Below are positions 28,050 to 59,113 of a stretch of DNA of 64,000 nucleotides, one piece after another. A model generated the notes under the pieces. That model was not told where the DNA came from, did not search any database, and saw only the letters and a program-made list of their open reading frames with translations. The translations under genes were made by a program, and so were the position numbers. Source of the DNA: Candidatus Sungiibacteriota bacterium (GTDB lineage: Bacteria > Patescibacteriota > Minisyncoccia > Sungbacterales > HO2-52-23); NCBI GenBank assembly GCA_016180435.1, contig JACPBG010000001.1, positions 283,107-347,106 on the forward strand, given 5' to 3'. How positions within the stretch are numbered: position 1 is the stretch's first letter; each line of letters begins with the position of its first letter.

Positions 28050-28237
28050 AGATTTTATTAATTATATTTGAAACCCATCCGTTCTTCCCTGCGTTGCAAA
28101 GAATGAAAGGAGGGCTTCGTGGCACAAGCGCTCATCTTTTTTTATCTTCGACGATTAGATAAATTGATGGGCGCTATTTTATTACCTGTTAATGCTGATA
28201 ATTTCTGTTGGAGTCAAGCCTAACCCGCGCTCCGCGC

Positions 28238-28460
<223 letters not shown>

Positions 28461-28516
28461 CTCCGTGCGAAGCACAGGACCGACCGGACTTTGAAGCTCC
28501 ATCGTGATTCAATTTA

Positions 28517-28805: not shown

Positions 28806-29030
28806 ACTTATCCACATATGCATGATGCCAATCCGATGCGAATTTAATGCCAATCTGGCGAATTGCTAATATGTGATGCCAATCCAATGCGAATTTAATG
28901 CCAATTTAGCGAATTGCTAATATGTGATGCCAATCCGATGCGAATTTAATGCCAATCTGGCGAATTGCGAATAAATATTAAGTTCATTTGTAGATTAGCA
29001 TAAGATTTGTAGATTGGCATCATATATGCA
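28806..29030. repeat. GATGCCAAT-family composite element (52-nt unit x3 tandem + inverted arm)
   Basis: TGATGCCAATCCGATGCGAATTTAATGCCAATCTGGCGAATTGCTAATATG x3, then TTGTAGATTAGCATAAGATTTGTAGATTGGCATCAT. Confidence 0.65.
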
Positions 29031-29898: not shown

Positions 29899-29990
29899 AC
29901 TAATCCACGAATTGATACACTAATCCACGAATCATAAATACTTTTTAGTTATTTGTGGATAGGTGTGCTCATTGGTGGATTCGTGTACAG
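29895..29990. repeat. CACACTAATCCACGAAT / GTGGATTCGTGTACA inverted-repeat element abutting the galU start
   Basis: Copies at 39770-39858 (before the 150-aa gene) and 46681-46778 (before pilB) share >85% identity. Confidence 0.65.
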
Positions 29991-30034
29991 AATCTTTTTC
30001 ATTATGTCCTATAAACATTTTATGTCCTATATGT

Positions 30035-31626: not shown

Positions 31627-31722
31627 ATATATGATGCCAATCTACAAATCTTATGCTAATCTACAAATTGCGAATCGGCTTGCGCCGGTATGATGCTAAT
31701 CTATGAATGATATGCCAATCTA
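31627..31722. repeat. GATGCCAAT-family element abutting the start of the 217-aa membrane protein gene
   Basis: TGATGCCAATCTACAAATCTTATGCTAATCTACAAATTGCGAAT…. Confidence 0.6.
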
Positions 31723-33198: not shown

Positions 33199-33200
33199 TT

Positions 33201-33285
33201 CTTTACGAAATACGAATTTTTACGAATATACGAATCAACGTGAATTTACTATTCGTAAATTCGTACTGATTGGTATTCCGTAAAG
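33201..33285. repeat. TACGAAT-rich 85-nt element with terminal inverted repeats (copy 1), abutting the gatA start
   Basis: CTTTACGAAATAC … GTATTCCGTAAAG termini. About 95% identical to copy 2 at 48504-48588. Confidence 0.7.
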
Positions 33286-36268: not shown

Positions 36269-36440
36269 ATCAATATGATGCCAATCTACAAATCTTATGC
36301 TAATCTACAAATTGCAAATAATTATTCTTCGAGTTAAATCGAGAAGATACCATCATAATGTATATTCTCGACAGGCTCGAATAATAACGATTCGCAATTC
36401 GCCAAATTGGCATTAAATTCGCATCGGATTGGCATCACGC
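36269..36440. repeat. GATGCCAAT-family palindromic element (long copy) abutting the ligA start
   Basis: Left arm TGATGCCAATCTACAAATCTTATGCTAATCTACAAATTGC… and right arm …GCAATTCGCCAAATTGGCATTAAATTCGCATCGGATTGGCATCA. Confidence 0.65.
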
Positions 36441-36845
36441 TTAATATGTGACCCTAAACGCCCTCCTCACCGAGCGAGTTCCCACATTACATCTATATTC
36501 GGCAGTCACCTGAATTTGCGTCAAAACGCCTACTTTAGTAACTCCCATGTCATAACATGCTCCGGATAATAATGGATAATCATTTTCCGTAGAACCGTTA
36601 GGCAGAGGGCCTATAACGCGATCGCGATAAAGCGTACGCTCGACCCCGTGGTCCGAACCGTTTATGGCATGAAAAGAATCCTCCATGGCGCCGGTAATTA
36701 AAAGCTCCCCATAAAGCACGTTAAATACTCCGATTCCGATAGAAAGTATGGCGGTAAGCAAAAAAACAGTTAATAATAGTGCGATTCCTTGGCGTTGCTG
36801 TAATTTCCAAATTCCAAATTTCATAAATTTCCAAACAATTTCCAA
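36441..36845 (-). CDS. pilin-like small membrane protein (no canonical class III signal)
   Basis: N-terminal hydrophobic helix after QRQG. Located at the head of the pilin gene run. Confidence 0.3.
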   Translation of the reverse strand: MEIVWKFMKFGIWKLQQRQGIALLLTVFLLTAILSIGIGVFNVLYGELLITGAMEDSFHAINGSDHGVERTLYRDRVIGPLPNGSTENDYPLLSGACYDMGVTKVGVLTQIQVTAEYRCNVGTRSVRRAFRVTY

Positions 36846-36883: not shown

Positions 36884-37648
36884 CTAAAAGTCCCTCAACC
36901 TTTGGGTCATAGTGGTTTGAATGTCAAGCATTGACTGCAGTTTGGTTTTCACGCCCCTGGAGCGCGCCCGAAGCGTGATTCGCACCCAGGGCTGGCCGTC
37001 ATCCGCGCCCGAGGCCTGTCCGAACAGATCAAATCGCAAACGTTCGATCGTAACATTATCCGTATCGGTAAAGGGGGCCGCATCCGAACAATTGAACGAG
37101 GCTTGAGTCACTCGCATAATAGTATCCGGAGCGCCGTTGTTATCGGTGTCATACAAAAAATAGGTTCGCGGCTGGGGAAATCCTTTATTCCAGTGGGTAA
37201 AACTAAACTCGGAATCCAAAGGAACCCGCGATGCGCCGCAAGCTGTTCTACCTTTGGTCGTTTTCTGATATGCGGCTCCGGTTCGGATCTCACGCGAAAA
37301 AAGCTCAAAGGTAAAACGGATGTTATCCTGCATAAGAAGCAGTGTCCCGACTTTTTCTCTGGCGTTTTGCGCCGCGATCATAACGCCGGTGGCCATCATT
37401 ACGGTAACGGAGAAAATGGAAAGAGAAACCAGCATCTCCAGAAGGGTGAAACCCCTCTTAAATGCAAAATGCAAAATGCAAAAATCAAAATTAAAGTATC
37501 GCTTCGCGACGTATTTTATATAAGCTAATTTTGAATTTTGAATTTTCATTTTGACTTTTGATGTTTTAAAACCAGTCCCCAAAAGTGATGCGGGCTCGGT
37601 TATTTTAATTTCAGACAATGGGAGGCAGGATTTGCTCGGACCGAGCAC
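36884..37648 (-). CDS. type IV pilin-like protein (minor pilin/pseudopilin)
   Basis: Prepilin class III signal KRG|FTLLEMLVSLSIFSVTV. Confidence 0.65.
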   Translation of the reverse strand: MLGPSKSCLPLSEIKITEPASLLGTGFKTSKVKMKIQNSKLAYIKYVAKRYFNFDFCILHFAFKRGFTLLEMLVSLSIFSVTVMMATGVMIAAQNAREKVGTLLLMQDNIRFTFELFSREIRTGAAYQKTTKGRTACGASRVPLDSEFSFTHWNKGFPQPRTYFLYDTDNNGAPDTIMRVTQASFNCSDAAPFTDTDNVTIERLRFDLFGQASGADDGQPWVRITLRARSRGVKTKLQSMLDIQTTMTQRLRDF

Positions 37649-37747
37649 TCAAAGCATTGAGTGCTCGGAAATCGTGCCGACCCTTAGTGAGGCCGCCGCA
37701 GGAGCGGCCGAATCGTGTCTGAAATTAAAATAACCGAGAAAACCGCA

Positions 37748-38449
37748 TCAACGCCAATTATACAATCTCTGCTCCAGCCGGGTTGATTTTAATAGGCCGC
37801 TTTCCATCCAGGCCACAATCGAAATTATGTCAATTTGAGCGGCCGAAGGAATACCCCCATCCGGAGTGCCGCCGCATACCGGCTTACCATCCAATCCCAA
37901 TGGCCCGCCCCCGTTCACCGGATTACAGACATAAACACAGCGCCGGAAAGGAGTGCGAGTGCCTGCGCCATAGGTATAAATACTGCTGGAATTAATATTC
38001 AGATATGTGGCATTGCAACTCCCGCCCAGCCGCGGCATGGCAAGAGTTATTGTTAAACCGCTAACCGGGTCCGTACAAGCAACCGAGGCAGTCATATCCT
38101 CCGTGTCAACAGTATACCCCTGGACGCTGTTTAATTTGGCGCCGCCCTGTTTACATTCCGGATTTCCGCTGGTACGGGGCTCCCGATCCCACGCGCAAAC
38201 ATCCTGCGGCTCATCCGCCCCGTTCAAAAAATCACAGAGCACGTTGTTTTCGCGTATAAGCCGCATCATTTCAATGCCTTCTTGCGCCAAATTAACCGCA
38301 ATCAGGTCCTGTTTCAGACGGGATGCGTTAAATACGCTCTTGGTGGTAAGGGAAAGCGCACTCACAATCCCTCCGGCAATAAGAGCAATCGCGACCAAGG
38401 CCTCAATCAAGGTGAATCCTTCCTTTTTGATGAATAGGTTTTTATTCAT
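37748..38449 (-). CDS. type IV pilin-like protein (minor pilin/pseudopilin)
   Basis: MNKNLFIKKEG|FTLIEALVAIALIAGGIV. Confidence 0.7.
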   Translation of the reverse strand: MNKNLFIKKEGFTLIEALVAIALIAGGIVSALSLTTKSVFNASRLKQDLIAVNLAQEGIEMMRLIRENNVLCDFLNGADEPQDVCAWDREPRTSGNPECKQGGAKLNSVQGYTVDTEDMTASVACTDPVSGLTITLAMPRLGGSCNATYLNINSSSIYTYGAGTRTPFRRCVYVCNPVNGGGPLGLDGKPVCGGTPDGGIPSAAQIDIISIVAWMESGLLKSTRLEQRLYNWR

Positions 38450-38469: not shown

Positions 38470-38550
38470 ATATTGGTTTCAGAACTTAGAACTTAGAACT
38501 TAGAAAACTATCTGCTAAGTTCTAAAATCTAAGTTCTTTTGTGCTTTTAG
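38470..38550. repeat. AGAACTTAG hairpin element between pseudopilin genes
   Basis: AGAACTTAG x3, a loop, then CTAAGTTCT x2. Confidence 0.6.
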
Positions 38551-39319: not shown

Positions 39320-39772
39320 TTATTCATATTTAAGCACATACCTGTCTCCCGCCTCTACCACAAGCGCATCCGCCGGAGCATTCTGTTCCCGGCCATTTAG
39401 ATAAATTTTCCATGATCCGCCTCTATCATAAATCCCCGCAAGTTCCGCAATATCGCCGTTTCGCAGAGTTAAAGAAAATTTACCGTTGTTTGCCGCGGAA
39501 TTCAGCGCCTCGGAAAGCGTATACTGATATCCGTTTACGTCGCCTTGAAAATAGCGTTTTTTGCCGTTGCCGAAATCAACTTCAACCAAAGCATATTTAT
39601 TCCCGGCATCGGACCGGCTCTGCAATAAAATTTCCAAATCGCGATCAAGTTCGCGCTCATAGCGATTTTCCGCCCAAAGTATCAAAAAGGCCGCTGCCAA
39701 GGCCGCGATTCCAATGATAAACCAGTGATTTAAATTTACATTTTGCGGTTTTTTATGCATAAAACACACCAA
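39320..39772 (-). CDS. membrane-anchored hypothetical protein
   Basis: One N-terminal TM helix and no motif. It lies inside the pilus locus. Confidence 0.35.
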   Translation of the reverse strand: MVCFMHKKPQNVNLNHWFIIGIAALAAAFLILWAENRYERELDRDLEILLQSRSDAGNKYALVEVDFGNGKKRYFQGDVNGYQYTLSEALNSAANNGKFSLTLRNGDIAELAGIYDRGGSWKIYLNGREQNAPADALVVEAGDRYVLKYE

Positions 39773-39858
39773 TCCACGAATTGATACACTAATCCACGAA
39801 TCACGACTACTTATCCCATTTGTGGATTTGTGTGCTCATTAGTGGATTTGTGTACAAA
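39770..39858. repeat. CACACTAATCCACGAAT-family element
   Basis: See 29895-29990. Confidence 0.6.
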
Positions 39859-39860
39859 AC

Positions 39861-40661
39861 TTATCCCATACTCATTCCAATATACCACAACGCTGTCTCG
39901 CTGTAAAAATACGCTGCCGCGCTTCCCGCCAATATGAATGGTCCAAATGGGATTTGGGTTTTTAAATTAACCACGCGCAGGGCAAGCAAAATAACGCCGA
40001 ATGCCGCGCCGATCCAGAAAGAAAAAAGGACGGCCGGAATGGATGCCGGAAATCCCAAAAGGAAAGATGTCGCCAAAACCAATTTTACGTCCCCAAAACC
40101 CATCCACGCGCCGCGGGACAAAAACCAAAGCGCAAAGAAGAAAAAAGCTAGACCCAAAGCCGCCCCAACATCATATCCTATATCTACGAGGCTTAGCCTC
40201 GTAGATTCTCGGATCAGAGAAACAACTAAAAGAGTTACCACGGCGCCGTTGGGGATTATTTTCCAGCGAATGTCGCTAACCAAAATGACAATAGAGGCGG
40301 ATGGAATAACAAAAGCAAACATCAATTCAAAAGCTAAGCGCGGACTTAGCCATAAAGGTATCCCCTCGACTCCGCTCGGGGAATAATAAATGGCGATCAA
40401 GGCAAAAAGTAATCCGGTTGCAAATTCCACCAATGGATACTGCCATGACAATTTCGCGCCGCAGGAACGGCACCGTGCTTTTTGTATGAAAAAACTAGCC
40501 AAAGGAATCAATTCAAACCATTGCAAAGTTTTTCCGCACGACTCACAGCGTGAACGTCCCTTAACGAACGACTCGCCCCGCGCGCCACGTAAAATCACGA
40601 CATTCAAAAAACTGCCTACGCCCAAGCCGAAGAGAAAAGAAAAGATATAATATAAAACCAT
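39861..40661 (-). CDS. pilD: prepilin peptidase (A24 family)
   Basis: N-terminal Cys pairs CESCGKTLQWFELIPLASFF…CRSCGAKLS. Polytopic, with the GFGDVKL region. Confidence 0.8.
   Translation of the reverse strand: MVLYYIFSFLFGLGVGSFLNVVILRGARGESFVKGRSRCESCGKTLQWFELIPLASFFIQKARCRSCGAKLSWQYPLVEFATGLLFALIAIYYSPSGVEGIPLWLSPRLAFELMFAFVIPSASIVILVSDIRWKIIPNGAVVTLLVVSLIRESTRLSLVDIGYDVGAALGLAFFFFALWFLSRGAWMGFGDVKLVLATSFLLGFPASIPAVLFSFWIGAAFGVILLALRVVNLKTQIPFGPFILAGSAAAYFYSETALWYIGMSMG
40183..40205. repeat. variant palindrome TCTACGAGGCTTAGCCTCGTAGA inside pilD (in frame, encodes STRLSLVD)
   Basis: Same core GAGGCTTAGCCTC with compensated arms. Confidence 0.55.
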
Positions 40662-41649: not shown

Positions 41650-41765
41650 GCGAGCTTCGCCCGAGAACTTAGCATTAAGAACTTAGAACTTAGACAAGCA
41701 CCTAGAACCTAGAACTTAGAAAATTAAACTATTTACTAAGTTCTAAACTCTAAGATCTAAATTCT
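41650..41765. repeat. AGAACTTAG hairpin element between the major pilin gene and pilC
   Basis: Shares the loop AGAAAATTAAACTATTTACTA with the copy at 28362-28382, in opposite orientation. Confidence 0.6.
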
Positions 41766-41777
41766 TTTGCGCTTTTA

Positions 41778-42995
41778 TTAGAGCGCCCCGACCAAATTAT
41801 ATAGCGGCACGAAAATGGCCAGCATAAGAAACGCCACCATAAGCCCCAAAACAAGGATCATGATCGGCTCAATCAAAGTAACCAGGTTATCCAGCATAGA
41901 ATCCACTTCTTTGCGGAAAAAACGCGATAAAGTCGCCAAAATAAAATCCAGGCGGCCGGTCAACTCTCCCACCTTGATCATCTGCACGACCATCACCGGA
42001 ATTTCCGGAACCCGTTCAAAAGCTGAAGAAATCGTATTACCGCCTTTGACCGAGACAATAGCATCCTGCAGGGCTTTTTTATAAATCACGTTTCCCACCA
42101 CCTCGGAGGTGATTTCAAGCGCCCGCAAAATCGGGATGCCCGCCACAATCAGGGTTTGAAGATTGTCCGCAACCCGCGCCATGTAAAGCTTCTGGAAAAG
42201 TTCGCCAAAAAGAGGCAAATGCACCTCCAGACGGTTTAAAAATACCTTTCCCTCCGCGGTTTCGGCCCAGCGCCATAAAAGAAAAATTGAGACAATTATC
42301 ACAATAATTACGGCAATTCCCCAGTCGCGCAGGAAAAACGATACGGCAAATATCATTTCCGTATAAAAAGGCAGGGGCTGATTGGTTTCTTTAAAAATAC
42401 TCGCCAGATCAGGGATAACAACCACGGTCATTACCGCCATAACCGCAACCATGGCAATCAGCACCACCAAAGGATACATAAGGGCATTACGCGCCTTGGA
42501 TGTTAAATAATAATTTCGCTCAATGTAATCGGCAAGGTAGGTAAATGTATCCTGCAATTTCCCGGCCTCCTCCGCGGCCCGCACCAAATTGATATAGAAG
42601 CTTGAAAAAATATTCGTATGCCGCGATAATGCCTGCGATAACGCCAGCCCGCCGGTAACATCCTTTAAAATTTCGGTAACAGCGCCGCGCAGTGAGGGCC
42701 GGAAAGATGTTTCGGCGGACAAGGTCTTCAGAGCGTCAAGTATGGGGACTTGCGCCTCGAAAAGAGTGGAGAGCTGGCGGGAAAAAACCATGACCTCCTT
42801 TTGCGGAACTTTGCCGCGAAAAAACGGGATTCTTGAACTAACTCCCCGGCCGGCAGTTTTTTGTTCCTTGATTTCCACCACCACCAAATTTCCCTGATGC
42901 AATCTTTCAACAGCCGCGTCTTTAGAGGAAACCTCAATAATGCCGGAGCGCAATTCTCCTTCTTTGGTGCGAGCTTTATATTCAAAAATAGGCAT
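41778..42995 (-). CDS. pilC: type IV pilus platform protein PilC/GspF family
   Basis: 405 aa with two GspF repeats and three TM segments. Confidence 0.8.
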   Translation of the reverse strand: MPIFEYKARTKEGELRSGIIEVSSKDAAVERLHQGNLVVVEIKEQKTAGRGVSSRIPFFRGKVPQKEVMVFSRQLSTLFEAQVPILDALKTLSAETSFRPSLRGAVTEILKDVTGGLALSQALSRHTNIFSSFYINLVRAAEEAGKLQDTFTYLADYIERNYYLTSKARNALMYPLVVLIAMVAVMAVMTVVVIPDLASIFKETNQPLPFYTEMIFAVSFFLRDWGIAVIIVIIVSIFLLWRWAETAEGKVFLNRLEVHLPLFGELFQKLYMARVADNLQTLIVAGIPILRALEITSEVVGNVIYKKALQDAIVSVKGGNTISSAFERVPEIPVMVVQMIKVGELTGRLDFILATLSRFFRKEVDSMLDNLVTLIEPIMILVLGLMVAFLMLAIFVPLYNLVGAL

Positions 42996-43002
42996 TCGTT
43001 AT

Positions 43003-43108
43003 AGCGGTTTCAACCATATTATTTTAGACACGCCTCGCTCGCTCCGGCGGCTCGCTCGCTAAGGGTCGGACGAAACTTTTCCGCCAAAGCGGAAAACCAA
43101 GCAGTTTC
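43003..43108 (-). ncRNA. structured element copy A (conserved flanks + covarying hairpin) upstream of pilC
   Basis: Minus-strand reading is UUUUAGACAAUGGGAGG, then the hairpin GGACGAAACU…AGUUUCGUCC, then GACCCUUAGCGAGCGAGCCGCCGGAGCGAGCGAGGCGUGUCUAAAA. Confidence 0.4.
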
Positions 43109-43199
43109 GTCCTCCCATTGTCTAAAATCATATGGTTAAAACCGCATGTATACTCACTTTATAGCTTTCTCAAGGTATCCGCCTCTGGCGGAATAAAAT

Positions 43200-43262
43200 T
43201 AAACGCAGAGTATTAGCAATTTGTAAATTGGCATTAAATTCGCATCGGATTGGCATCACATC
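43200..43262. repeat. GATGCCAAT-family half element downstream of pilT
   Basis: GCATTAAATTCGCATCGGATTGGCATCA. Confidence 0.5.
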
Positions 43263-44353
43263 TATCGCTTCAGAAGCGATTTAAGTTCTCCGGGATTTAA
43301 GGAGTACAAAATAGCGTTTTCCATGGATATTTCGCCTCGGCGCACCAAATCCGAAAGCGAGCGGTTCAAACTCACCATCCCCTGCTCAAGATTGGTCTCA
43401 ATCACCAAATCAATCTCATGGATTTTATTTTCCCGGACAAGAGTACGCACCGCCGGATTGGCAATCATGATCTCAACTGCCGGAACCAAGCCCCCGCCGA
43501 TCCGAGGAATCAAGCGCTGGGAAACAATACCTATGAGAGTAGAGGCAAGCTGGGCCCTGATCTGCCCCTGGCGGAAAGATGGAAATGTGTCAATAATCCG
43601 ATCGATGGATTGGGCCGCATTATTGGTATGAAGCGTGGATAAAATCAGGTGGCCGGTTTCGGCGGCCGATACCGCGGTTCCCATGGTTTCGGCATCGCGC
43701 ATTTCGCCGATCATCGCCACATCCACATCTTCGCGAAAAACCGAACGAAGCGCCCGGTCAAAACCAATCGTATCCAGCCCAACTTCGCGCTGGTCAATGA
43801 TCGCACGGTCGGACACAAAAAGGTATTCAATCGGATCCTCAATGGTTATAATATGGTCCGAGCGCGAATGATTGATAAAATCCACTATGGCCGCAAGCGT
43901 AGTTGATTTCCCGTGCCCGGTAGGTCCCACCACCAAGAAAAAACCCTGCTGGATTTGGGCAAATTCCTCCAAAATCGGAGGCAGATTTAATTCTTTCAGG
44001 GAACGGATTTTAGTCGGAACTACGCGAAGAGCCGACCCCATAAAACCTTTTTGATAAAAGGTATTAACGCGAAACCGCACCCGATCTTTAAAGGTATAAG
44101 AAAAATCGAGTTCTTTTTCCTGCAAAAAACGCTCGCGCTGCTCATCGCTCATCAGGGATAACACAAATTCCTCCGTGTCTGCAGGAGTCATTACCGCATG
44201 CTTCACCAGAGGCACGAGCGCCCCATCCACCCGCAAAGTTGGATTGCGTCCCACGGAAATATGCAAATCAGATGCATTTTCTTTCAGGACGGCGTTAAAT
44301 AAATCCTCAAATTTATTTTGCAACGTTGGCTCGCCATTACACTTTCTCGACAC
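43262..44353 (-). CDS. pilT: type IV pilus retraction ATPase PilT
   Basis: Walker A GPTGHGKSTT, Asp box, His box and the N-terminal NASDLHI. The start codon is GTG or TTG and overlaps the upstream structured element. Confidence 0.8.
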   Translation of the reverse strand: MSRKCNGEPTLQNKFEDLFNAVLKENASDLHISVGRNPTLRVDGALVPLVKHAVMTPADTEEFVLSLMSDEQRERFLQEKELDFSYTFKDRVRFRVNTFYQKGFMGSALRVVPTKIRSLKELNLPPILEEFAQIQQGFFLVVGPTGHGKSTTLAAIVDFINHSRSDHIITIEDPIEYLFVSDRAIIDQREVGLDTIGFDRALRSVFREDVDVAMIGEMRDAETMGTAVSAAETGHLILSTLHTNNAAQSIDRIIDTFPSFRQGQIRAQLASTLIGIVSQRLIPRIGGGLVPAVEIMIANPAVRTLVRENKIHEIDLVIETNLEQGMVSLNRSLSDLVRRGEISMENAILYSLNPGELKSLLKR

Positions 44354-44446
44354 GCCTCGCTCGCTCCTGCGGCTCGCTCGCTAAGGGTCGGCGCGATTTT
44401 CCGCCCATGGCGGATCCAAGCAAATCGCGCCTCCCATTGTCTCGAA
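44343..44446 (-). ncRNA. structured element copy B upstream of pilT
   Basis: Same flanks as copy A. Inner hairpin GGCGCGAUU…AAUCGCGCC. Confidence 0.4.
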
Positions 44447-44476
44447 AGTACAATGGACTCGCTATAAAAAATTATT

Positions 44477-44845
44477 TTATTTCTGCAACACCTGTTTAAC
44501 TTTTTCGACAACCTCGCTAGGGGTAAAATGCGCCTTGATCACATAATCATCCGCCCCGAATTCCATGCCTTTTTCCACGTCTTCTTTCTGGCCGAGATTG
44601 GTAAGAAGTATAACTTTGGGAGTGCCGCCTTTTTTGCCTTTTTTTAATTCACGCAAGACCTCAAATCCATCCATCTCGGGCATCACTATATCAAGCAAGA
44701 TGCAATCCGGGGTTGCTGTTTTTAATTTCTCAAGCGCTTCTTTGCCGTTTCGCGCCGAGTCCACGCCAAAACCGCACTCCCGGAATTTGAGCGTGTACAT
44801 ATCCAAAATAAAAGGGTCGTCATCGATTAAAAATACATTAGCCAT
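44477..44845 (-). CDS. single-domain response regulator receiver (CheY/PilH-like)
   Basis: DDDPFILDMY…LLDIVMPEMDG…KVILLTNLG has the phospho-acceptor Asp and the conserved Lys. Confidence 0.8.
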   Translation of the reverse strand: MANVFLIDDDPFILDMYTLKFRECGFGVDSARNGKEALEKLKTATPDCILLDIVMPEMDGFEVLRELKKGKKGGTPKVILLTNLGQKEDVEKGMEFGADDYVIKAHFTPSEVVEKVKQVLQK

Positions 44846-44960
44846 AAATGTGATGCCAATTTACAAATCTTATGCCAATCTGGCGAATTGCGAATACGCT
44901 AATGATTATTATTCGCAATTTGTAGATTAGCATTAAATTCGCATCGGATTGGCATCATAT
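44846..44960. repeat. GATGCCAAT-family palindromic element between pilB and the response regulator start
   Basis: The arms are inverted repeats, with central loop CGCTAATGATTAT. Confidence 0.65.
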
Positions 44961-44963
44961 ATA

Positions 44964-46688
44964 TTACACCACTTCCAGCAACTCTTCCATACCCATAATC
45001 CCCTTCAACACTTTAAGCGCTCCGTCTTGGCGCATGGTAATCATACCCTGGCGTTGGGCTTCTTCCAGAAGTTTATTCTCCGTGGCACCGGCCAAAATTA
45101 TTTTTTCAAGCTCCGGAGTCATAGAATACATCTCATAAATCCCGATTCGTCCCCGGGTTCCTTTGGGGCAAGCCGATGAGACCTCGGCTTGATAAATCTC
45201 GGAAGGGATATTCTTGCGGGCCGCCTCCCCCTCTTCGCCCGGAATTTCACTGATCTCTTTAATAATCGTGTCTTTGATTTTTCCCGTAAGTTTGACTTTT
45301 TTGCGCGAATCCGGACAAAGGCGCCTGGTCAGACGCTGGGCCATCATCAAAACAACGGTGGAGGGAATCAAATAAGGGTCAACGCCCATATCGATCAAGC
45401 GCGGAATCACACCCGTCGCATTATTGGTGTGAAGAGTGGACAACACCAGGTGTCCGGTAAGCGCCGCATGTACCGCAAGAGTTGCTGTTTCTTTGTCGCG
45501 TATTTCACCAACCATAATAATATCCGGGTCTTGGCGTAAAATATGGCGAAGGCCCGTGGCAAAATCGTAATTGATTTCCGGACGAACTTGCGACTGATTG
45601 ACTCCGTTGACGTAGTATTCTATGGGATCCTCCAAACTAACGATATTGACTCCCTCTTCATTCAGCATCTGAAGCAGGGCATAAAGCGTAGTGGATTTAC
45701 CGGAACCGGTGGGTCCGGTGATCAAAATCATGCCAAAAGGCGCCTTGATCGCCTCCTCAATCGCGGTTTTATTCCTTCCCGTGATCCCGAGATCTTCCAG
45801 ATTGGAAATGCCGGATGAAGGATCCAAAATACGTATCACCACTTTTTCTCCGAAAGACGTTGGAAAAGTAGATACGCGGAAATCAATTTCCCGGTCAAGA
45901 ATCTTAGCATGAAACCGCCCATCCTGCGGGACCCGGGTCTCATCAATTTTTAAATTTGTCATTACTTTGATCCTGGAAACGAGCGCCGCATGCACTCCCT
46001 GGGGAAGAGTAAGATTGATGTGCAATATGCCATCCACTCGGAATCGGATGCGAAGCTGGTCGCGGCCGGGTTCAATATGAATGTCGGACGCCCTGCCCTC
46101 CACGGCGTGCCGCAAAATTACAGCGACTATCTTGGTCACCGGAGCATCCTCCACGATCTTGGTTTCAGACCCCTTGCCCTTGCCCACTATATCGCCCAGC
46201 GACTCATATTCCTTTTCAAATTCGCCTAAGGCCTTAGTGACCTCTCCGGTCAAATTCTTATACTGCATTAGTACATTCTGAAAATCTGACGGCGTTACAA
46301 TAAACATGCGCAAAGGCAGATTTATGCGCGACGCGATGAATTTTACGGCTTCGCGCGCCGAAACATCCTCCGGGAAAAGCATTCCCGCATCAAAATACCC
46401 TTCGGATTTTCCCAAAGGAATTACGCTGTAATGACGCGCCGATTCTTCCGGAATATCGTGCAGCGCTTCAAGCTCCACCGAAGCCCCTTGCAGATATTTA
46501 ACCGGAAATCCGGTAAGTTCGGCTTTGGCATCTGCCACATCCCCCTCTTGAATCCCGCGGGCATAAAGCACGTCATCTATTGAAATGCTCTTATCCTGCG
46601 CGTCTAAACGAGCTTGCGCGGCTTCATTCAAATCAATTACGCCGCGGGAAACCAAAATGTCCAATAATGAACGGGCCATAGAACACAC
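44964..46688 (-). CDS. pilB: type IV pilus assembly ATPase PilB/GspE family
   Basis: N-terminal GSPII_E_N-like domain, Walker A GPTGSGKSTTL, and a CxxC…CxxC tetracysteine. Confidence 0.85.
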   Translation of the reverse strand: MCSMARSLLDILVSRGVIDLNEAAQARLDAQDKSISIDDVLYARGIQEGDVADAKAELTGFPVKYLQGASVELEALHDIPEESARHYSVIPLGKSEGYFDAGMLFPEDVSAREAVKFIASRINLPLRMFIVTPSDFQNVLMQYKNLTGEVTKALGEFEKEYESLGDIVGKGKGSETKIVEDAPVTKIVAVILRHAVEGRASDIHIEPGRDQLRIRFRVDGILHINLTLPQGVHAALVSRIKVMTNLKIDETRVPQDGRFHAKILDREIDFRVSTFPTSFGEKVVIRILDPSSGISNLEDLGITGRNKTAIEEAIKAPFGMILITGPTGSGKSTTLYALLQMLNEEGVNIVSLEDPIEYYVNGVNQSQVRPEINYDFATGLRHILRQDPDIIMVGEIRDKETATLAVHAALTGHLVLSTLHTNNATGVIPRLIDMGVDPYLIPSTVVLMMAQRLTRRLCPDSRKKVKLTGKIKDTIIKEISEIPGEEGEAARKNIPSEIYQAEVSSACPKGTRGRIGIYEMYSMTPELEKIILAGATENKLLEEAQRQGMITMRQDGALKVLKGIMGMEELLEVV

Positions 46689-46778
46689 TAATCTACTAAT
46701 GTTTACACTAATCCGCGAATCATAAATAGTTATCTTATTTGTGGATTGGTGTGCTCATTAGTGGATTCGTGTACAGGA
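46681..46778. repeat. CACACTAATCCACGAAT-family element abutting the pilB start
   Basis: See 29895-29990. Confidence 0.6.
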
Positions 46779-46790
46779 TTTATTTCAAAT

Positions 46791-47123
46791 TTATCTCAAT
46801 GTTTGGCCGGATGCCGGCGCGGATGATGCGCCGCCCACTGCCGCCGCATACGGATTCGGGCGTCCCAAAACCTGTCCCTCCGGCACCAAGGGCGTTAGCA
46901 AATCAGGAATTGAAACAAGCTCACGGAAAAATTCATCCTGAAACGCCGACATATCAAGCTCCACGCTCTCCAGACGCCTATACGAAACCAACCGGGTTTC
47001 CAAATCCGCATCAATAACTGCCGGCGTATCGGATCCGCCCGGAAGTACGGATGTAAACCACCAAAATCCTATGCCTGCGACGACAACAAGCAAAATTATT
47101 ATGATGAGAAGTTGAGTATTCAA
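46791..47123 (-). CDS. small membrane protein of the pilus locus (TTG start)
   Basis: 110 aa with one N-terminal TM helix. It sits between pilB and pilO. Confidence 0.4.
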   Translation of the reverse strand: MNTQLLIIIILLVVVAGIGFWWFTSVLPGGSDTPAVIDADLETRLVSYRRLESVELDMSAFQDEFFRELVSIPDLLTPLVPEGQVLGRPNPYAAAVGGASSAPASGQTLR

Positions 47124-47140
47124 GTTTCGCTCGCCGATGC

Positions 47141-47247
47141 GTTTTCAAGACACGACTCGCTCGCTCCTGCGGCTCGCTCGCTAAGGGTCGGGCAAAATTT
47201 CGCGTTTCGCGCGAACCAAGCAATTTTGCCCTCCCATTGTCTTGAAA
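47141..47247 (-). ncRNA. structured element copy C upstream of the 110-aa membrane protein gene
   Basis: Same flanks. Inner hairpin GGGCAAAAU…AUUUUGCCC. Perfect outer stem GUUUUCAAGACA/UGUCUUGAAAAC. Confidence 0.4.
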
Positions 47248-47286
47248 ACGTATCGGACTCGCTTATAACACAAACTCCATATGTAT

Positions 47287-47943: not shown

Positions 47944-48501
47944 CTATTGCGGTTTTAAATAAAGTAAATCCGGTTTCACAATAATCGATGCCGTAAAACT
48001 CACGGTATTTTTTTCGCCCAGAGACAATCCGCCGAATTCTACACGCTCAACCATCGGATCATTTTCCAAAATAGTAATCTGGCGCGCAAGCGCGGTATAG
48101 TCAAGCGCCTTGCCGGAAACATCAACTTTTCGGCTGCCGGCCAAAAACGCAAAATCTCCGAATTGCACCTGCGGATGAGCTTTATCTTCAACCAGTTTTA
48201 AAACATTTGTGGCGAAAAGATGGCCGGCAAGCAAAGACCGCAGATTCTTAAGCCGCGCATCCAATAGAAATACTTCCTCGGTCGCAGAAGAATTAAGATC
48301 TTCCTCTTTTAATTTAACTTCGGAACGCAAGGTGTCGCGATTATCTGTCTGCTTCTTATTTAATATCGTAAGCGCCCCGTAACCGCCGGCGGTTACCAAA
48401 AAAATGAAGAAAGCCAAAAAATAAACAAAAGCCGGCGCGCCTTGCGGAAGGGGCGGAGCAGTTCTTGGCAGTTGCTCTTGTCTTAATAGTAAGTTTGGCA
48501 T
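47944..48501 (-). CDS. pilN: PilN-like pilus assembly protein
   Basis: TM anchor followed by a periplasmic domain. It lies immediately downstream of pilM. Confidence 0.55.
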   Translation of the reverse strand: MPNLLLRQEQLPRTAPPLPQGAPAFVYFLAFFIFLVTAGGYGALTILNKKQTDNRDTLRSEVKLKEEDLNSSATEEVFLLDARLKNLRSLLAGHLFATNVLKLVEDKAHPQVQFGDFAFLAGSRKVDVSGKALDYTALARQITILENDPMVERVEFGGLSLGEKNTVSFTASIIVKPDLLYLKPQ

Positions 48502-48503
48502 GC

Positions 48504-48588
48504 CTTTACGAAATACGAATTTTTACGAATATACGAATCAGCGAGAATTTACTATTCGTAAATTCGTACTGATTAGTATTTCGTAAAG
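48504..48588. repeat. TACGAAT-rich 85-nt element (copy 2) between pilM and pilN, abutting the pilN start
   Basis: Near-identical to 33201-33285. It ends 2 nt before the pilN ATG. Confidence 0.7.
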
Positions 48589-52151: not shown

Positions 52152-52186
52152 TAAAAAATTTGTGCCGATCTAAGATCGGCACAAAT
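52152..52186 (-). terminator. rho-independent terminator (13-bp stem ATTTGTGCCGATC/GATCGGCACAAAT)
   Basis: Perfect stem with loop TAA, followed on the minus strand by TTTTTTAT. It ends a ~200-nt structured region downstream of rny. Confidence 0.55.
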
Positions 52187-52391
52187 ACATTAAGCGAACT
52201 CCACACGCTCTCTCTTCAGGGATTGTCTTTAATTTCGAGTGCGCGGTCGAGGCGGTTCTTTTTAAAAACCATTGAGAAGCCGATTGGCACGGTCTCCGAC
52301 CGCAGTCGGAGCAATCGGCTGATCATTGAGAACAGCCGCCCGCTGGGGCGGCTGTTCGTGTTTTCAAAAAGAATCGCCTCGAAAACCGCGC

Positions 52392-53921
52392 CTATCGAGC
52401 ATACTCCACAACCCTTGTTTCCCTTATCACATGCACTTTTATCTCTCCCGGATACTTCAATTCCGCCTCCACTTGTTGCGCGATTTTTCGCGCAAGTTCC
52501 CGCGCTTCAAAATCGCTGATTTTCTCCGGCGTCACAAAAATTCTGATCTCTCGTCCTCCGGAAATCGCGTAGGCCTTCTCCACTCCGTCCATGGCAGCTG
52601 CAATACGTTCCAAATCCTCTAAACGCTTTAAATATGCTTCAATAGTATCTCGGCGCGCACCCGGGCGGGAAGCGGAAATCGCATCCACGGTCTGCACGAT
52701 CACGGATTCAAGGGTCTCATACGGATATTCCTCGTGATGCGATTGCATGGCCTGGATCACTTTAACGTCCACCCCGAATTTTTGCAAAATCCTGCGACCG
52801 ATCTCAACATGCGTTCCGGTGACTTCATGGTCCACGGCTTTTCCAATATCATGCAAAAGCGCGCCTTTCTTAGCGATTGCCACATCCCCTCCGACTTCGG
52901 ATGCCAGCATTCCGGCCAAATGCGTCATCTCAATTGAATGTTGTAGCACGTTTTGGCCGTAACTTGTGCGGAATTTTAAACGCCCCACCAGCGTCAATAG
53001 CCGCGGATCCAAATCAAAAATCCCAACCTCATACGCGGCTTTTTCTCCGGCATCCTTTATTTGCTTTTCAATTTCTTCGCGCGCCTTCTCTACCGTTTCT
53101 TCGATCCTGGCGGGCTGTATGCGGCCATCCTGAATCAGCATTTCCAGAGATGCTTTGGCGATCTGGCGCCGAACCGGATCAAAAGAAGATATCACAATTG
53201 ATCCCGGGGTATCATCCACAATCACTTCAACGCCGGCCGCGCGTTCCAGCGCCTTAATGTTCCTACCCTCACGGCCGATGATTTTTCCTTTCAAATCATC
53301 CGAAGGAATCGCAACCGTTGTGGTAGTAACTTCGGATGTCGTGGGAGTCGCCAAACGCTGGATAAGCGCGGCCAGAGTATTTTTGGCTTTACGCTCCAGT
53401 TCCTCCATTCCGGATTGTTCCATTTTTTTCACGCGCACCATAAGATCCTCGGCGTGCTCTTTTTGCACTTTTTGCATTACGGCATTAACCGCGTCTTCCT
53501 TGGAAAGCCCGGAAATGCGTTCAAGCTCTTTCAGGGACTTGGCTTTGGCATCTTCTATTTCAACTTTAATTGTCTTCAAACGCTCAATTTTATCTTCCAA
53601 GTCCTTTTCTTTTTGCTCAAAATCGGCTCTGCGTTTATCAATCGAGGTTTCCCGCTCCAAAACCCTCTCCTCCAATTTACGAATTTGGCTAATGCGCTCT
53701 TTTTCCTCTTTTTTGGCCTCGTCCACAACCCTGCCGGCCCTTTCCTTGGCATCCAACAAAATTTCCTTGGCTTCGGTTTTGGAATCTTCAATAAGTTTCT
53801 TTAACTTGGCCTCTATTGAGGATTTCCGGCGCTGAGCCACGAGTTGCCGCAGCAAATACCCGCCGCCAACGCCCGCAACGAGTATAAGAATTGCCCCTCC
53901 AAATAAAAATAGCGGATCCAT
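52392..53921 (-). CDS. rny: ribonuclease Y
   Basis: N-terminal TM, a long coiled coil, KH domain (IIGREGRNIKALE) and HD domain (HSIEMTHLAGMLASEVGGD…LLHDIGK). Confidence 0.9.
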   Translation of the reverse strand: MDPLFLFGGAILILVAGVGGGYLLRQLVAQRRKSSIEAKLKKLIEDSKTEAKEILLDAKERAGRVVDEAKKEEKERISQIRKLEERVLERETSIDKRRADFEQKEKDLEDKIERLKTIKVEIEDAKAKSLKELERISGLSKEDAVNAVMQKVQKEHAEDLMVRVKKMEQSGMEELERKAKNTLAALIQRLATPTTSEVTTTTVAIPSDDLKGKIIGREGRNIKALERAAGVEVIVDDTPGSIVISSFDPVRRQIAKASLEMLIQDGRIQPARIEETVEKAREEIEKQIKDAGEKAAYEVGIFDLDPRLLTLVGRLKFRTSYGQNVLQHSIEMTHLAGMLASEVGGDVAIAKKGALLHDIGKAVDHEVTGTHVEIGRRILQKFGVDVKVIQAMQSHHEEYPYETLESVIVQTVDAISASRPGARRDTIEAYLKRLEDLERIAAAMDGVEKAYAISGGREIRIFVTPEKISDFEARELARKIAQQVEAELKYPGEIKVHVIRETRVVEYAR

Positions 53922-58838: not shown

Positions 58839-59113
58839 ACAAATAATAATAACACAACAAATATTTAGACAGAAACGAAAAATAAAAAGCGCGGAATGCG
58901 CTACCTTGAGAAAACTCTCACCCTCTCCGCAGAAAATGGAATAAGCGAGGCACTATGCATTTTTGCGAAATTTGCGTAGGTGCGGATACAAATAAATGAA
59001 CGAGGCAACAAGGGAAGCCGCGAGCGGACGTAGCGGAGGGCTCCCGTTGCCGAGCGAATATTATTTGTCCGCACCGTAGCACTTGAGCAAAATGCATGGT
59101 GCCGAGCAAAAAC

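Follow-up and report, generated by a model that had tools for sequence, protein, structure and literature searches.

The three elements that precede type IV pilus genes in the window (the whole 64,000-nt stretch of DNA analysed here) are members of a large, apparently undescribed, non-coding interspersed repeat family of Patescibacteria, which is tied neither to pilus genes nor to the sense strand. Our leading interpretation, a tentative one to which we give slightly less than an even chance, is that the element is REP/REPIN- or attC-like and acts as a folded single strand, more probably of DNA than of RNA. The 3′ block common to the three copies (GACCCTTAGCGAGCGAGCCGC) occurs exactly three times, with none expected from shuffles, and, besides three instances of the 5′ block GACAATGGGAGG-N7-TGCTTGG, there is a fourth at 37614 on the plus strand that deviates at one position. 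A pattern scan recovered 32 genome loci and 88 metagenome loci, and the covariance-model search of related genomes called for in the original prediction returned 51 + 105 matches, which collapse to 108 distinct copies across Patescibacteria genomes and groundwater metagenomes, and no copies in viral contigs. The family matches no entry in Rfam 15, in line with the initial impression that it belongs to no described family, and neither coding capacity in the element nor a recurrent neighbouring ORF was found.

On the strand that had been read originally, the element folds into a Y-shaped three-way junction of ~135-185 nt (typically ~150 nt); the ~105 nt first assigned to it cover the conserved blocks but fall short of the full length, which includes a further outer stem, P1, of 18-27 bp with a different sequence at each locus. 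Two sheared-type G·A pairs, in a YCGAG/CCGAG clamp, close P1 at its base, a further outer helix lies beyond it in some copies, and the junction reads (R)ACA-AU / UUA / G. Arm 1 runs from GGG-A-GG through P2 (7 bp) and the fixed bulge UGCUUGG to P3 (6-13 bp), closed via CC-GA-CCC; the spacer between GGGAGG and UGCUUGG, previously put at 4-5 nt, is actually 7 nt and forms the 5′ strand of P2. Arm 2 comprises a YGAG/CGAR clamp, P4 (5-6 bp) and the fixed loop CGCNGGA. P4 is a fourth helix, made of the GCGAGC...GCGAGC segment of the former "3′ flank"; copies A-C have tandem G·A mismatches there, where copy D and most relatives have Watson-Crick pairs. Tandem G·A pairs occur in the context 5′-Y-GA-R-3′, which favours sheared pairing. 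Stems vary freely in sequence, while the unpaired nucleotides of junction, bulge and loop hardly change even between diverged subfamilies, one of which reads GUGAUGA-[P4]-GAA.

The originally proposed selection on secondary structure is supported by very large covariation, both in 33 genome copies and in 77 independent metagenome copies. Paired cells reached 84.6% in alignment A2 (63.2% in shuffles) and 90.4% in alignment A7 (61.6% in shuffles), with 371 versus 128 and 1008 versus 291 double-change cells, respectively, and slid-partner controls were 37-53% paired. At the P4 clamp, both closing pairs covary (CG:40, UA:31) and the G·A/A·G pairs inside stay fixed. Pair changes are mostly flips from one Watson-Crick pair to another, with few G·U intermediates. 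No two copies from different loci exceed ~90-95% identity, which gives no indication of a recent burst.

Five copies in the window are intact, three of them on the minus strand (A-C) and two on the plus strand (D and E); another two, G and F, are degenerate or related. Copies A-C lie where they were first reported, with the nested hairpins as described, are sense to the pilus genes, and fold at -59 to -62 kcal/mol (z -4 to -6). Copy A (43008-43191, 132 bits) starts with a 5′ extension, in which a small hairpin CCGCCAGAGGCGG (43191-43179) is followed by UACCUUGAGAAA (43177-43166) and UAAAGUGAG, and continues with an outer helix GCGG...CCGC, P1, the core, the P2/bulge/P3 arm, P4 and the P1 3′ strand. 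It ends 12 nt ahead of the ATG (42995) of pilC (T2SSF; 41778-42995, minus strand), and four same-strain Logan contigs carry the identical sequence. Copy B (44328-44463, 146 bits), ordered as AGCGAG, P1, core, P2/P3, P4, P1 3′ strand and GGCGAGCC, sits between the stop codon of a response regulator (44477) and the TTG (44323-44321) that is the likely start of a pilT-like ATPase (T2SSE; 43262-44323, minus strand), an ORF open further upstream to a GTG at 44353 within the copy. Copy C (47128-47264, 148 bits) separates a PilO-like gene from the TTG (47123) of a 110-aa membrane ORF (46791-47123, minus strand), which has no Pfam match and is conserved in L002.

The plus-strand copy D (37585-37750, 139 bits) is antisense to both flanking pseudopilin genes and folds at -94 kcal/mol (z -11.6), and its outer helix GUGAUGCGG/CCGCAUCA spans the stop codon of the opposite-strand gene (37748-37750). 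Copy E (52160-52394, core 52240-52391, plus strand; 68 bits, E ~5e-15) belongs to a diverged subfamily, with UGA:UCA in place of GGG:CCC, and is antisense to RNase Y, whose stop codon (52392-52394) it abuts; upstream on its own strand, a hairpin (52160-52184) precedes AUACAUUAAG, and this hairpin together with a U-run, read on the opposite strand, is an intrinsic terminator. Element F (58889-59107, plus strand) is related but not the same: located antisense, directly after the ClpP stop codon, and matching L014 at 5592-5730, it shares with the family the 5′ extension, made up of hairpin GCGCGGAAUGCGC and UACCUUGAGAAA, as well as two nested sets of UAAGCGAGG...CCGAGC clamps, which enclose a different, rod-like interior (-80 kcal/mol, z -7.7). 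Copy G (23711-23952, minus strand) is partial or decayed (15 bits, or 23 bits with E 0.002), retaining CCGACCC, P4 (GGCCGC-CGCAGGA-GCGGCC) and the P1 3′ strand and missing the 5′ core.

Across the family, the neighbours are unrelated housekeeping genes, and include those for L11, RRF, L3, EF-Tu, MreB, Pol III delta', RNase Y and ClpP, along with an ATP-synthase-like operon. Most copies directly follow stop codons and are antisense to their neighbours: between co-directional genes, 37-42 copies are antisense and 9-17 sense. Copies were found downstream of L11 in three different genomes. One and the same gene family can be followed by copies of either orientation, and the single 64-kb window also has both. 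In several sense-oriented copies other than A-C, a start codon lies directly 3′ of the 3′ clamp. An intrinsic terminator on the opposite strand follows the element in 23 of 98 copies, such that the complementary RNA would fit a 3′-UTR element, an observation that runs against a REP/attC-like reading. Finally, a conserved A/T-rich, TGnTATAAG-like motif lies just upstream of type-1 copies; as a candidate -10 motif it usually ends in G, and a consensus promoter scan yielded no enrichment.

The fold signature is strand-specific in every orientation class, independent of the direction of transcription. Mismatch counts overall were 356 for G·A, 123 for G·U, 59 for A·C and 13 for C·U; an unbiased ungapped count of P1 gave 56 G·U versus 22 A·C and 54 G·A versus 0 C·U, and copies antisense to their neighbours gave 38 versus 17 and 97 versus 6, respectively. 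Model scores were 132-148 bits on the correct strand versus 13-22 bits on the other. The reverse complement also folds well, with similar z-scores, a point against the REP/attC-like reading. At the P3 tips, C-GNA-G triloops make up 17 of 78 and the complementary class none, stable RNA-type tetraloops are almost absent (GNRA 1/78, UNCG 0/78), and G·U pairs are rare throughout (~2.5% of pairs), which together suggest a DNA-like hairpin. Mini-hairpins of the d(GCGAAGC) type melt at ~76 °C, versus 39 °C for r(GCGAAAGC), and mark single-stranded-DNA initiation sites (PMC13037366; PMC3201870). The 5′-Y-GA-R-3′ context of the tandem G·A pairs also counts among the DNA-like features, but the clamps that they form, like the architecture as a whole, would suit RNA just as well.

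Between close strains, copies are present, absent or internally deleted, and the P2-P3 hairpin is swapped as a block. The window and L002/L015 show reciprocally filled and empty copy sites: the site orthologous to copy B is empty, with an overlapping TAAATG junction in L002, and the syntenic genome GW2011_GWA2_45_30, in which these pilus genes are retained, lacks an element at the copy A site as well. One copy of L011, complete with 5′ extension, faces a clean empty site in L115; another has an internal deletion in L011, whereas L081 and L115 have it intact between flanks of 96-100% identity. No target-site duplication was visible at the empty copy B site or at the L115/L011 site. As for exchange, the copy C ortholog in L002 is 97-98% identical except for a replaced P3, the copy D ortholog in L015 has P2-P3 replaced, and L115 and L081 are ~97-100% identical in flanks, P1 and P4 but carry unrelated P2-P3 modules, that of L115 being close to the one of the paralog L012. 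Across copy pairs, P1 similarity and P2-P3 similarity are uncorrelated (r = 0.03). Since P2-P3 is swapped as a block, the compensatory change originally read from the three pilus-gene copies is at least partly module exchange and not stepwise compensation. In orthologs, 117 of 120 nt of the locus-specific stems are conserved, versus 262 of 321 nt in adjacent flanks, which argues for selection on copies in place, a pattern that a purely selfish element would not show.

If the element is indeed REP/REPIN- or attC-like, the folded single strand would be the substrate of a putative trans-acting, structure-specific enzyme that spreads, deletes and recombines copies, and these may persist chiefly where a short gap separates a stop codon from the next signal. 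For sense copies inside operons, such as A-C, the same fold must also form in the mRNA, 4-12 nt before start codons, and probably affects processing, stability or translational coupling; such effects on pilus mRNAs would then be a by-product, and not what conserves the family. The sequence open to inspection around copies amounted to only ~0.9 Mb, and no transposase, recombinase or reverse transcriptase was seen in it. Some observations go against this reading: neither a recent burst nor a target-site duplication is visible, and ortholog stems are better conserved than flanks. In IS200/IS605-type ssDNA elements, the active strand is expected on the lagging-strand template, i.e., the strand that is sense for co-directional genes. 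In the present family, GC skew agrees with a leading-strand position of the genes, and the folded strand is mostly antisense, contrary to movement of the IS200/IS605 type.

An unlikely but by no means negligible alternative is a structured RNA functional at its own locus. This could be an sRNA from the folded strand, or an intercistronic or 3′-UTR punctuation structure serving as RNase III-type processing site, exonuclease barrier or translation insulator, either of them bound by a protein that would recognise both GC(N)1-2GG loops along with the tandem G·A clamps. Such an RNA would be in keeping with the covariation around a fixed junction, bulge and loop, the conservation of ortholog stems above their flanks, the recurrent placement after stop codons (frequently ahead of a terminator, and in three genomes behind L11), and the near-perfect P1 duplex, 18-27 bp being the size accepted by RNase III. 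The A/T-rich motif upstream of type-1 copies also points this way, although its usual final G and the unenriched promoter scan do not. However, the signature is antisense to mRNA in most copies, copies are dispensable between strains with ~97% identical flanks, and both orientations follow the same gene family; moreover, DNA-type triloops dominate the P3 tips, with stable RNA tetraloops essentially absent and G·U pairs rare.

It is improbable that the fold is not selected at all and that the family is a palindromic MITE-like repeat, with stems and covariation produced by intra-strand template switching (quasi-palindrome correction) and gene conversion, and conserved blocks that are simply shared ancestral sequence. 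Block exchange of P2-P3, uncorrelated similarities between parts of the element, the predominance of Watson-Crick flips with few G·U intermediates, and loss by internal deletion could all arise in this way. Yet this would leave unexplained the near-invariance of unpaired nucleotides across diverged subfamilies, the GGG:CCC to UGA:UCA replacement in copy E, the clamp pairs that covary around fixed G·A, and the ortholog stems conserved above flank level; in addition, mismatches and loops are asymmetric between strands, which symmetric DNA processes would not produce.

Quite improbable is a host ssDNA signal that is not a mobile element, such as a priming or "ssi"-like site or a replication/recombination landmark: the P3 tips are mini-hairpin-type loops as at primase-dependent origins and ssiA, the fold is strand-specific regardless of transcription, and copies are conserved in place, but most copies fold on the strand other than the presumed lagging-strand template, close strains dispense with copies, and both orientations occur within one 64-kb stretch. 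Very improbable is a self-cleaving ribozyme that cleaves operon transcripts, or a retro-element RNA templating a reverse transcriptase. The compact three-way junction, its invariant nucleotides and the many copies per genome are suggestive, and the GUGAUGA-[P4]-GAA subfamily superficially resembles a hammerhead core, but that core requires CUGANGA, the canonical subfamily has UUAGYGA and junction strands of 2, 3 and 1 nt, searches with E relaxed to 10 matched no Rfam 15 ribozyme family, the surroundings of copies that were examined yielded no reverse transcriptase, and most copies are antisense to transcription. The idea put forward originally, a cis-acting type IV pilus leader working as a leader-peptide attenuator (MGG..DP*) or as a riboregulator through the Shine-Dalgarno-like GGGAGG, is barely credible and already largely refuted: copies A-C are sense, the start codons of pilC, pilT and the small ORF follow them at 4-12 nt, their mini-ORF (ATG..TAG, 18-19 codons) is intact, and several other sense copies abut a start codon, but only 14 of 36 copies preserve that frame (~12 expected by chance), GGGAGG is base-paired in the conserved fold, most copies are antisense beside functionally unrelated genes, and the syntenic relative has the same pilus genes and no element at the copy A and B sites. 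A family so scattered, gained, lost and recombined is thus not a pilus-specific riboregulator.

Among known systems, REP/BIME/REPIN elements with their RAYT (TnpA-REP, HUH Y1) are likewise high-copy, non-coding extragenic palindromes found after genes and inside operons. REP/REPINs are recognised as folded single strands and not by sequence, and display hairpin-preserving variation, mosaic or modular make-up and long persistence without bursts (PMC3116915, PMC8266576, PMC3733652); the last three are shared by the family described here, and on our reading recognition as a folded strand would be as well. However, a REP unit spans 20-40 nt and bears a GTAG or CGTC tag, and REPINs consist of inverted doublets, whereas the present element is a ~150-nt three-way junction with fixed internal loops, TTAG at the tag position and stems that differ at each locus. 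No RAYT was seen in the limited ~0.9 Mb around copies. Integron attC sites are similar in that structure rather than sequence is conserved, one strand folds, short conserved basal boxes and extrahelical or unpaired bases are present, a "variable terminal structure" is comparable to P3, and exchange is cassette-like. Unlike the present copies, which lie in both orientations within ribosomal-protein, ATP-synthase-like and pilus operons, attC sites have R''/L''/L'/R' boxes (RYYYAAC / GTTRRRY) and separate promoterless cassettes in single-orientation arrays beside intI, none of which was seen here. ERIC, Correia (CREE/NEMIS), BOX, RUP and Rickettsia palindromic elements are also 100-200 nt intergenic non-coding repeats of small or host-associated genomes, co-transcribed with their neighbours, forming long hairpins that are possible RNase III substrates, and polymorphic in presence and absence; they are conserved in sequence, including terminal inverted repeats, often with TA or other target duplication, whereas in the present family P1 arms vary by locus, only unpaired nucleotides are fixed, and no duplication was seen. 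The phage G4 origin, RSF1010 ssiA and plasmid sso hairpins are, similarly, strand-specific folded DNA of ~100-200 nt with GNA-type mini-hairpins, and the parvovirus ITR is Y/T-shaped, ~145 nt long and has GAGC repeats, a comparison we offer as a lead only. Unlike these single-copy parts of replicons or viruses, the present family is dispersed in the chromosome at more than ~1 copy per 10 kb.

The original prediction described three minus-strand copies of a ~105-nt element, and their positions proved exact. Its conserved 3′ flank was recovered as a 21-nt block present 3× in the window and 0× in shuffles, its conserved 5′ flank as GACAATGGGAGG-N7-TGCTTGG (3× in the window), and the nested hairpins between the flanks were found as described in copies A, B, and C. 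The element is thus real but larger than proposed, and the spacer in the 5′ flank is 7 nt rather than 4–5 nt. A window scan also detected a fourth 5′ block, on the plus strand at 37614, that carries one mismatch. With R1, a covariance model of the repeat (filters off), five clear copies were identified in the window, namely A (43008–43191, minus), B (44328–44463, minus), C (47128–47264, minus), and D (37585–37750, plus) at 132–148 bits and the diverged E (52160–52394, plus) at 68 bits, along with one partial copy, G (23711–23952, minus); the opposite strand at the same five loci scored only 13–22 bits. We refer to this ~135–185-nt repeat as the Y element; one of its strands, on which the copies were originally read (the reading strand), folds into a Y-shaped three-way junction. 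The host is a Parcubacteria-type member of the Patescibacteria related to GW2011_GWA2_45_30. Almost all genes of the window lie on the minus strand, and the plus strand has a negative GC skew throughout. The pilus cluster, in minus-strand order, reads PilM, a 185-aa ORF, a PilO-like protein, copy C, a small membrane ORF, PilB, a response regulator, copy B, PilT, copy A, PilC, pilin, prepilin peptidase, pseudopilins, copy D, and a pseudopilin. The decayed copy G lies between two large surface-type ORFs with repeats (21636–23393 and 24480–28049, minus), one with 147-nt in-frame repeats and the other encoding a 1189-aa PG_binding_1 protein with 15-nt repeats at 27558–27632.

Beyond the conserved blocks, each copy carries a different long outer inverted repeat (in copy A, GCGGUUUUAACCAUAUGAUUUUAGACA ... 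UGUCUAAAAUAAUAUGGUUGAAACCGC), and whole units folded at −59 to −62 kcal/mol for copies A–C (z-scores −4 to −6) and at −94 kcal/mol for copy D (z −11.6). RNAalifold, applied to an alignment of 33 copies, yielded a three-way junction with strands AU, UUA, and G, in which the outer stem P1 (18–27 bp) ends in (R)ACA/UGU(Y). Arm 1 leads from GGG-A-GG through P2 (7 bp), a fixed bulge UGCUUGG, and P3 to closure via CC-GA-CCC. Arm 2 is P4, whose base (Y-G-A-G/C-G-A-R) places two G·A pairs between two covarying Watson–Crick pairs and whose loop is fixed as CGCNGGA; its stem includes one more tandem G·A in copies A–C (GCGAGC/GCGAGC), and is Watson–Crick in copy D and most relatives (e.g., GGCCGC/GCGGCC). 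The base of P1 is closed by a CGAG/CCGAG clamp like that of P4, and “type-2” copies possess an additional outer helix (UGCGG/CCGCA). About 1/3 of copies are preceded by a 5′ extension composed of a small GC hairpin, UAC(M)UURAGAAAA, a short spacer, and UAAGCGAG. Across the fetched loci, 21 of 24 occurrences of the 12-mer of this extension adjoin copies, 1 is non-adjacent, and 2 are in loci that were not scanned; the 12-mer also occurs within the inserted DNA of a filled-versus-empty site comparison. Element F (58889–59107, plus) is a related, rod-like element, with a hairpin of −80 kcal/mol and two nested CGAGG...CCGAG clamps. Since it has the clamps and 5′ extension of the Y element around a different interior, the clamp-plus-stem “shell” may be a module common to several element types.

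We next consider how widely this structure is distributed and conserved. A pattern scan identified 32 loci in Patescibacteria genome assemblies (13 in Parcubacteria GW2011_GWA2_45_30 and 8 in one other assembly) and 88 in groundwater metagenomes; with 0 matches in viral contigs, a phage origin was rejected. Searches of Patescibacteria genomes and groundwater metagenomes with R1 returned 51 + 105 hits, corresponding to 108 distinct sequences, which include diverged subfamilies with UGA:UCA in place of GGG:CCC (e.g., copy E). All 108 are intergenic, high-copy palindromes whose fold signature is strand-specific. Their P1 arms vary from locus to locus with covariation, and are shared only within small subfamilies. 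In the A2 alignment (MAFFT, 33 copies), 84.6% of helix cells were paired vs 63.2% in shuffles and 40–49% in slid-partner controls, with 371 double-change cells vs 128 in shuffles. The A7 alignment, an independent, model-fitted metagenome set of 77 distinct rows, gave 90.4% paired vs 61.6% shuffled (slid-partner 37–53%) and 1008 vs 291 double-change cells. Within A7, the P4 clamp is closed on its outer side by C-G in 40 rows and by U-A in 31; both G·A positions are unpaired in 65–68 rows and Watson–Crick in a few. This covariation, far above shuffles in both alignments, indicates that the structure is real and selected, as first suggested from copies A–C.

The family also matches nothing described, in line with the initial assessment. 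The 64-kb window contained no tRNA gene and no Rfam 15 family at gathering score, and searches at E up to 10 around copies A–D and in L002, the locus with the copy C ortholog, returned nothing relevant. Families covered without a match included hammerhead, twister, pistol, hatchet, HDV-like, T-box, 6S, and Y RNA, and no description of the Y element was found in the literature on Patescibacteria repeats, RNA motifs, MITEs, and hairpins. One diverged subfamily (L013 257–415, L002 4656–4817, L032 7322–7498, and L056 8643–8801), with GUGAUGAG as the strand into P4 and CGAAGG as the strand out, shows a likeness to hammerhead and box C/D cores, with no Rfam detection; a hammerhead-like core was rejected as a superficial resemblance.

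Several features are informative about which strand, and which nucleic acid, is folded. Across all copies, helix mismatches were G·A 356, G·U 123, A·C 59, and C·U 13. A model-independent count, based on ungapped extension of P1 from the GACA/UGUC anchor, gave G·U 56 vs A·C 22 and G·A 54 vs C·U 0, and copies antisense to their neighbours displayed the same asymmetry (G·U 38 vs A·C 17; G·A 97 vs C·U 6). As this asymmetry holds regardless of gene direction, the folded, selected entity is the reading strand, which argues against action within mRNA for most copies. Folding energy was also lower on the reading strand in 88 of 100 copies, yet this strand is rich in G and z-scores hardly differ between the two strands, so we do not rely on the energy difference alone, and take the ungapped count and a loop census as its unbiased versions. 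G·U makes up only about 2.5% of pairs, and the tandem G·A context is 5′-Y-GA-R-3′, which favours sheared G·A pairs. For 78 P3 tips, the census found 35 triloops, 17 of them C-GNA-G, and 0 of the reverse-complement class, along with GNRA 1 and UNCG 0. Mini-hairpins of the d(GCGAAGC) type are exceptionally stable as DNA, melting at about 76 °C vs 39 °C for r(GCGAAAGC), and are found at single-stranded-DNA initiation sites (PMC13037366, PMC3201870). These loop and pair features favour a single-stranded DNA form, with RNA being compatible with each.

Comparisons between related loci (designated by L-numbers) revealed gain, loss, and deletion of copies. Synteny links the window to contig LCKU01000009 of GW2011_GWA2_45_30 (~76–85% identity); there, the response-regulator stop overlaps the pilT ATG (TAAATG), and copy B is therefore absent. 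Copy A is likewise missing, and three other gaps of the same operon hold copies missing from the window. L011 displays an internal deletion of a copy intact in L081 and L115, with flanks 96–100% identical and the 3′ arm and 5′ extension kept, and at a site where L011 has a full copy between two ATP-synthase-like genes, the genes of L115 meet in a clean junction of 9 nt. No target-site duplication was visible at two empty/filled comparisons, where flanks are 77–97% identical and short duplications could be masked. No two copies from different loci exceed about 90–95% identity, as opposed to what a recent transposition burst would leave. Copy A is identical in four same-strain Logan contigs carrying identical PilC, so that active hypervariation within the strain was rejected, and a look-up of the response regulator found nothing. 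Taken together, these comparisons show turnover without a recent burst or hypermutation.

Copies also exchange parts. Between the L115 and L081 orthologs, flanks, P1, and P4 are about 97–100% identical, whereas the P2-bulge-P3 module (GGGAGG to CCGACCC) is different throughout; except in the loop, the paralog L012 has a module matching the one in L115. Similarly, copies C and D depart from their orthologs in P3 or P2-P3 alone. Near-identical P2-P3 modules were found with unrelated P1 stems in different genomes, and P1 similarity was uncorrelated with module similarity across all copy pairs (r = 0.03). Each module in A, B, and C is indeed a perfect hairpin, but given this block exchange, part of what had been read as compensatory change is module shuffling. 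Locus-specific stems P0/P1 are identical between the window and GW2011 at 117 of 120 nt, compared to 262 of 321 nt for adjacent flanks, so copies are constrained where they are located.

The genomic context of copies is heterogeneous. Neighbours include PilO, PilB, a response regulator, PilT, PilC, pseudopilins, RNase Y, and ClpP within the window, and L11, RRF, L3, EF-Tu, MreB, and Pol III delta′ outside it, i.e., unrelated housekeeping genes instead of a coherent gene set with copies upstream in sense. Of the 108 copies, those flanked by co-directional genes comprise 37–42 antisense and 9–17 sense cases, with 11–14 convergent and 4–7 divergent contexts. For antisense copies, a median of 14 nt separates the 3′ end of the element from the stop codon of the opposite-strand gene, and in type-2 members (e.g., copy D) this codon comes immediately after the outer helix or falls within it. 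No U-run follows P1, so the Y element itself is not built as an intrinsic terminator; terminator activity is predicted only for the optional small 5′-extension hairpin on the opposite strand, where a terminator-like hairpin and U-run after the element occur in 23 of 98 copies vs 4–12 in three control configurations. A consensus scan for a sigma-70 promoter of the element itself showed no enrichment, and a TGnTATAAG-like candidate motif mostly ends in G. Feature tests excluded a riboswitch, an attenuator, a known ribozyme, and a terminator.

Overall, the Y element is a dispersed, modular, non-coding repeat family that is strand-specifically folded, and whose copies are gained, lost, deleted, and recombined. 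By analogy, it could work like REP/REPIN or attC elements, a reading to which we give somewhat less than an even chance. The folded single strand would then be handled by a putative trans-acting, structure-specific enzyme, which would account for the spread, loss, and cassette-like exchange of copies, and the stop-codon-proximal, mostly antisense placement would be where such DNA is tolerated. For the sense copies A–C, the fold must form in the polycistronic pilus mRNA too, 4–12 nt before start codons. Two of these starts are TTG, and the copy B junction stands where the coupled TAAATG occurs in the relative, so the fold is likely, as a secondary consequence, to influence how pilT, pilC, and the small ORF are processed, how stable their mRNA is, or how their translation is coupled. 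Several observations count against a REP- or attC-like mode of action. All-against-all ORF clustering of ~0.9 Mb, covering only the surroundings of copies, recovered syntenic housekeeping genes only, with no transposase, reverse transcriptase, or other recurrent ORF, and no candidate enzyme within that range. Identical copies were not found and target duplications were not visible, copies are conserved where located, and, if genes are co-directional with replication, orientation is opposite to that of IS200/IS605-type single-stranded DNA elements. A more specific and rather unlikely version is that the family is the substrate of undiscovered structure-specific Patescibacteria machinery acting on single-stranded DNA or possibly RNA. 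Such machinery would recognize the tandem G·A clamps and two GC(N)1-2GG loops, copy the element to new intergenic sites, and exchange the P2-P3 hairpin like a cassette; if true, the most reduced bacterial genomes would harbour a mobile or recombining element of a new kind, or else a new class of ribonucleoprotein.

The main rival, a genuine contender which we nonetheless consider doubtful, is an RNA function at the locus, either as an sRNA from the folded strand or as an intercistronic or 3′-UTR punctuation structure. Conservation of copies in place and the terminator arrangement support this reading, and the strand data and loop types weaken it. That the copies are a structureless palindromic MITE is improbable, and we hold a host single-stranded-DNA signal to be more improbable still. 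A ribozyme or retro-element RNA is very improbable. The original leader-peptide or riboregulator cassette of pilus genes is scarcely credible: an 18–19-codon ATG..TAG frame does exist in A, B, and C, but a frame with the conserved TAG occurs in 14 of 36 copies (~12 expected by chance), so a leader peptide was rejected for want of a conserved reading frame, neighbours are unrelated, and copies are mostly antisense to them.

Patescibacteria (CPR) genomes are among the most streamlined known, and yet the window averages about one ~150-nt element every 10 kb; copies lie within pilus operons in this case and, in relatives, within ribosomal-protein and ATP-synthase-like operons. The combination of fixed unpaired nucleotides, free helices, and a cassette hairpin implies a dedicated protein partner and a mechanism undescribed for these organisms. 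In practical terms, these repeats seem to fragment short-read assemblies of the genomes that carry them, as many metagenome contigs end in or beside a copy (metagenome/Logan contigs L048, L049, L052, L089, L113, and L033–L036). Copies can also shift start-codon calls, such as the GTG/TTG choice for pilT, and can be mistaken for a riboswitch or leader from sequence alone. The covariance model provides a handle for a family census and a search for a co-occurring enzyme.

Other repeats occupy further gaps of the window. AT-rich “words” (TGATGCCAAT / ATTCGCAATT ...) form long imperfect hairpins at 44847–44961, 43211–43265, 28823–28973, 31629–31734, and 36273–36444, including the pilB–response regulator gap and the one after pilT, with only chance miRNA-precursor hits in Rfam. 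With further pilus-cluster gaps filled by such word hairpins of other repeat families, long intergenic hairpins seem to be a widespread feature of this genome. Another intergenic repeat, the third, is 124 nt long (61–79% identical) and likewise a long hairpin; it occurs at 46677–46800, 39758–39881, and 29889–30012, with one copy between the small membrane ORF and pilB. Positions 28233–28472, 38474–38537, and 41650–41768 hold a 43-nt unit, GCGCGCCATGCGCGAGAATTTAGATCTTAGAGTTTAGAACTTAG, in three tandem copies followed by AGTTCTA/AACTTAG word runs, and related words, which lie downstream of pilC and near pseudopilin genes. A 90-nt AT-rich repeat (TTTACGAAATACGAAT words) has two copies 93% identical, at 33196–33285 and 48499–48588, one of them immediately upstream of the gap on the pilM side of that cluster of pilus genes. 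Finally, a perfect palindrome, ACTATAGAGGC-TAA-GCCTCTATAGT, has six copies (16780, 18435, 20413, 20439, 50536, and 51290); it is conserved in sequence, unlike Y-element stems, and may be a terminator or protein-binding site.

Among known systems, TIGR-Tas arrays were rejected on architecture, as these are tandem edge/spacer/loop/spacer units by a Nop-domain Tas gene (PMC12045711), whereas Y copies occur singly at scattered sites and have self-complementary stems as their variable parts. IS200/IS605-derived PATE have their active strand on the lagging-strand template, subterminal LE/RE hairpins, and a tetranucleotide target; the folded Y strand is mostly antisense to the genes, with a negative plus-strand GC skew, which would be opposite to expectation if genes are co-directional with replication. 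Classical MITEs have terminal inverted repeats conserved among copies, whereas Y-element P1 arms vary by locus. Integron attC sites are alike in relying on structure rather than sequence, in their variable terminal structure, and in exchange, but they have R/L boxes and form arrays by intI with cassettes in one orientation; Y elements end without RYYYAAC/GTTRRRY, lack arrays and intI, and are dispersed in essential operons in both orientations. No RAYT gene flanked by repeats was seen in the fetched loci around copies, and REP/REPIN-RAYT systems have a 20–40-nt unit, a GTAG or CGTC tag, and inverted doublets, compared to a ~150-nt three-way junction with TTAG/GTGA at the foot of P4. Like REP, BIME, and REPIN sequences, which are high-copy palindromes recognized as a folded single strand, Y elements are extragenic, folded, and mosaic, and we file them among the bacterial structured interspersed repeats.
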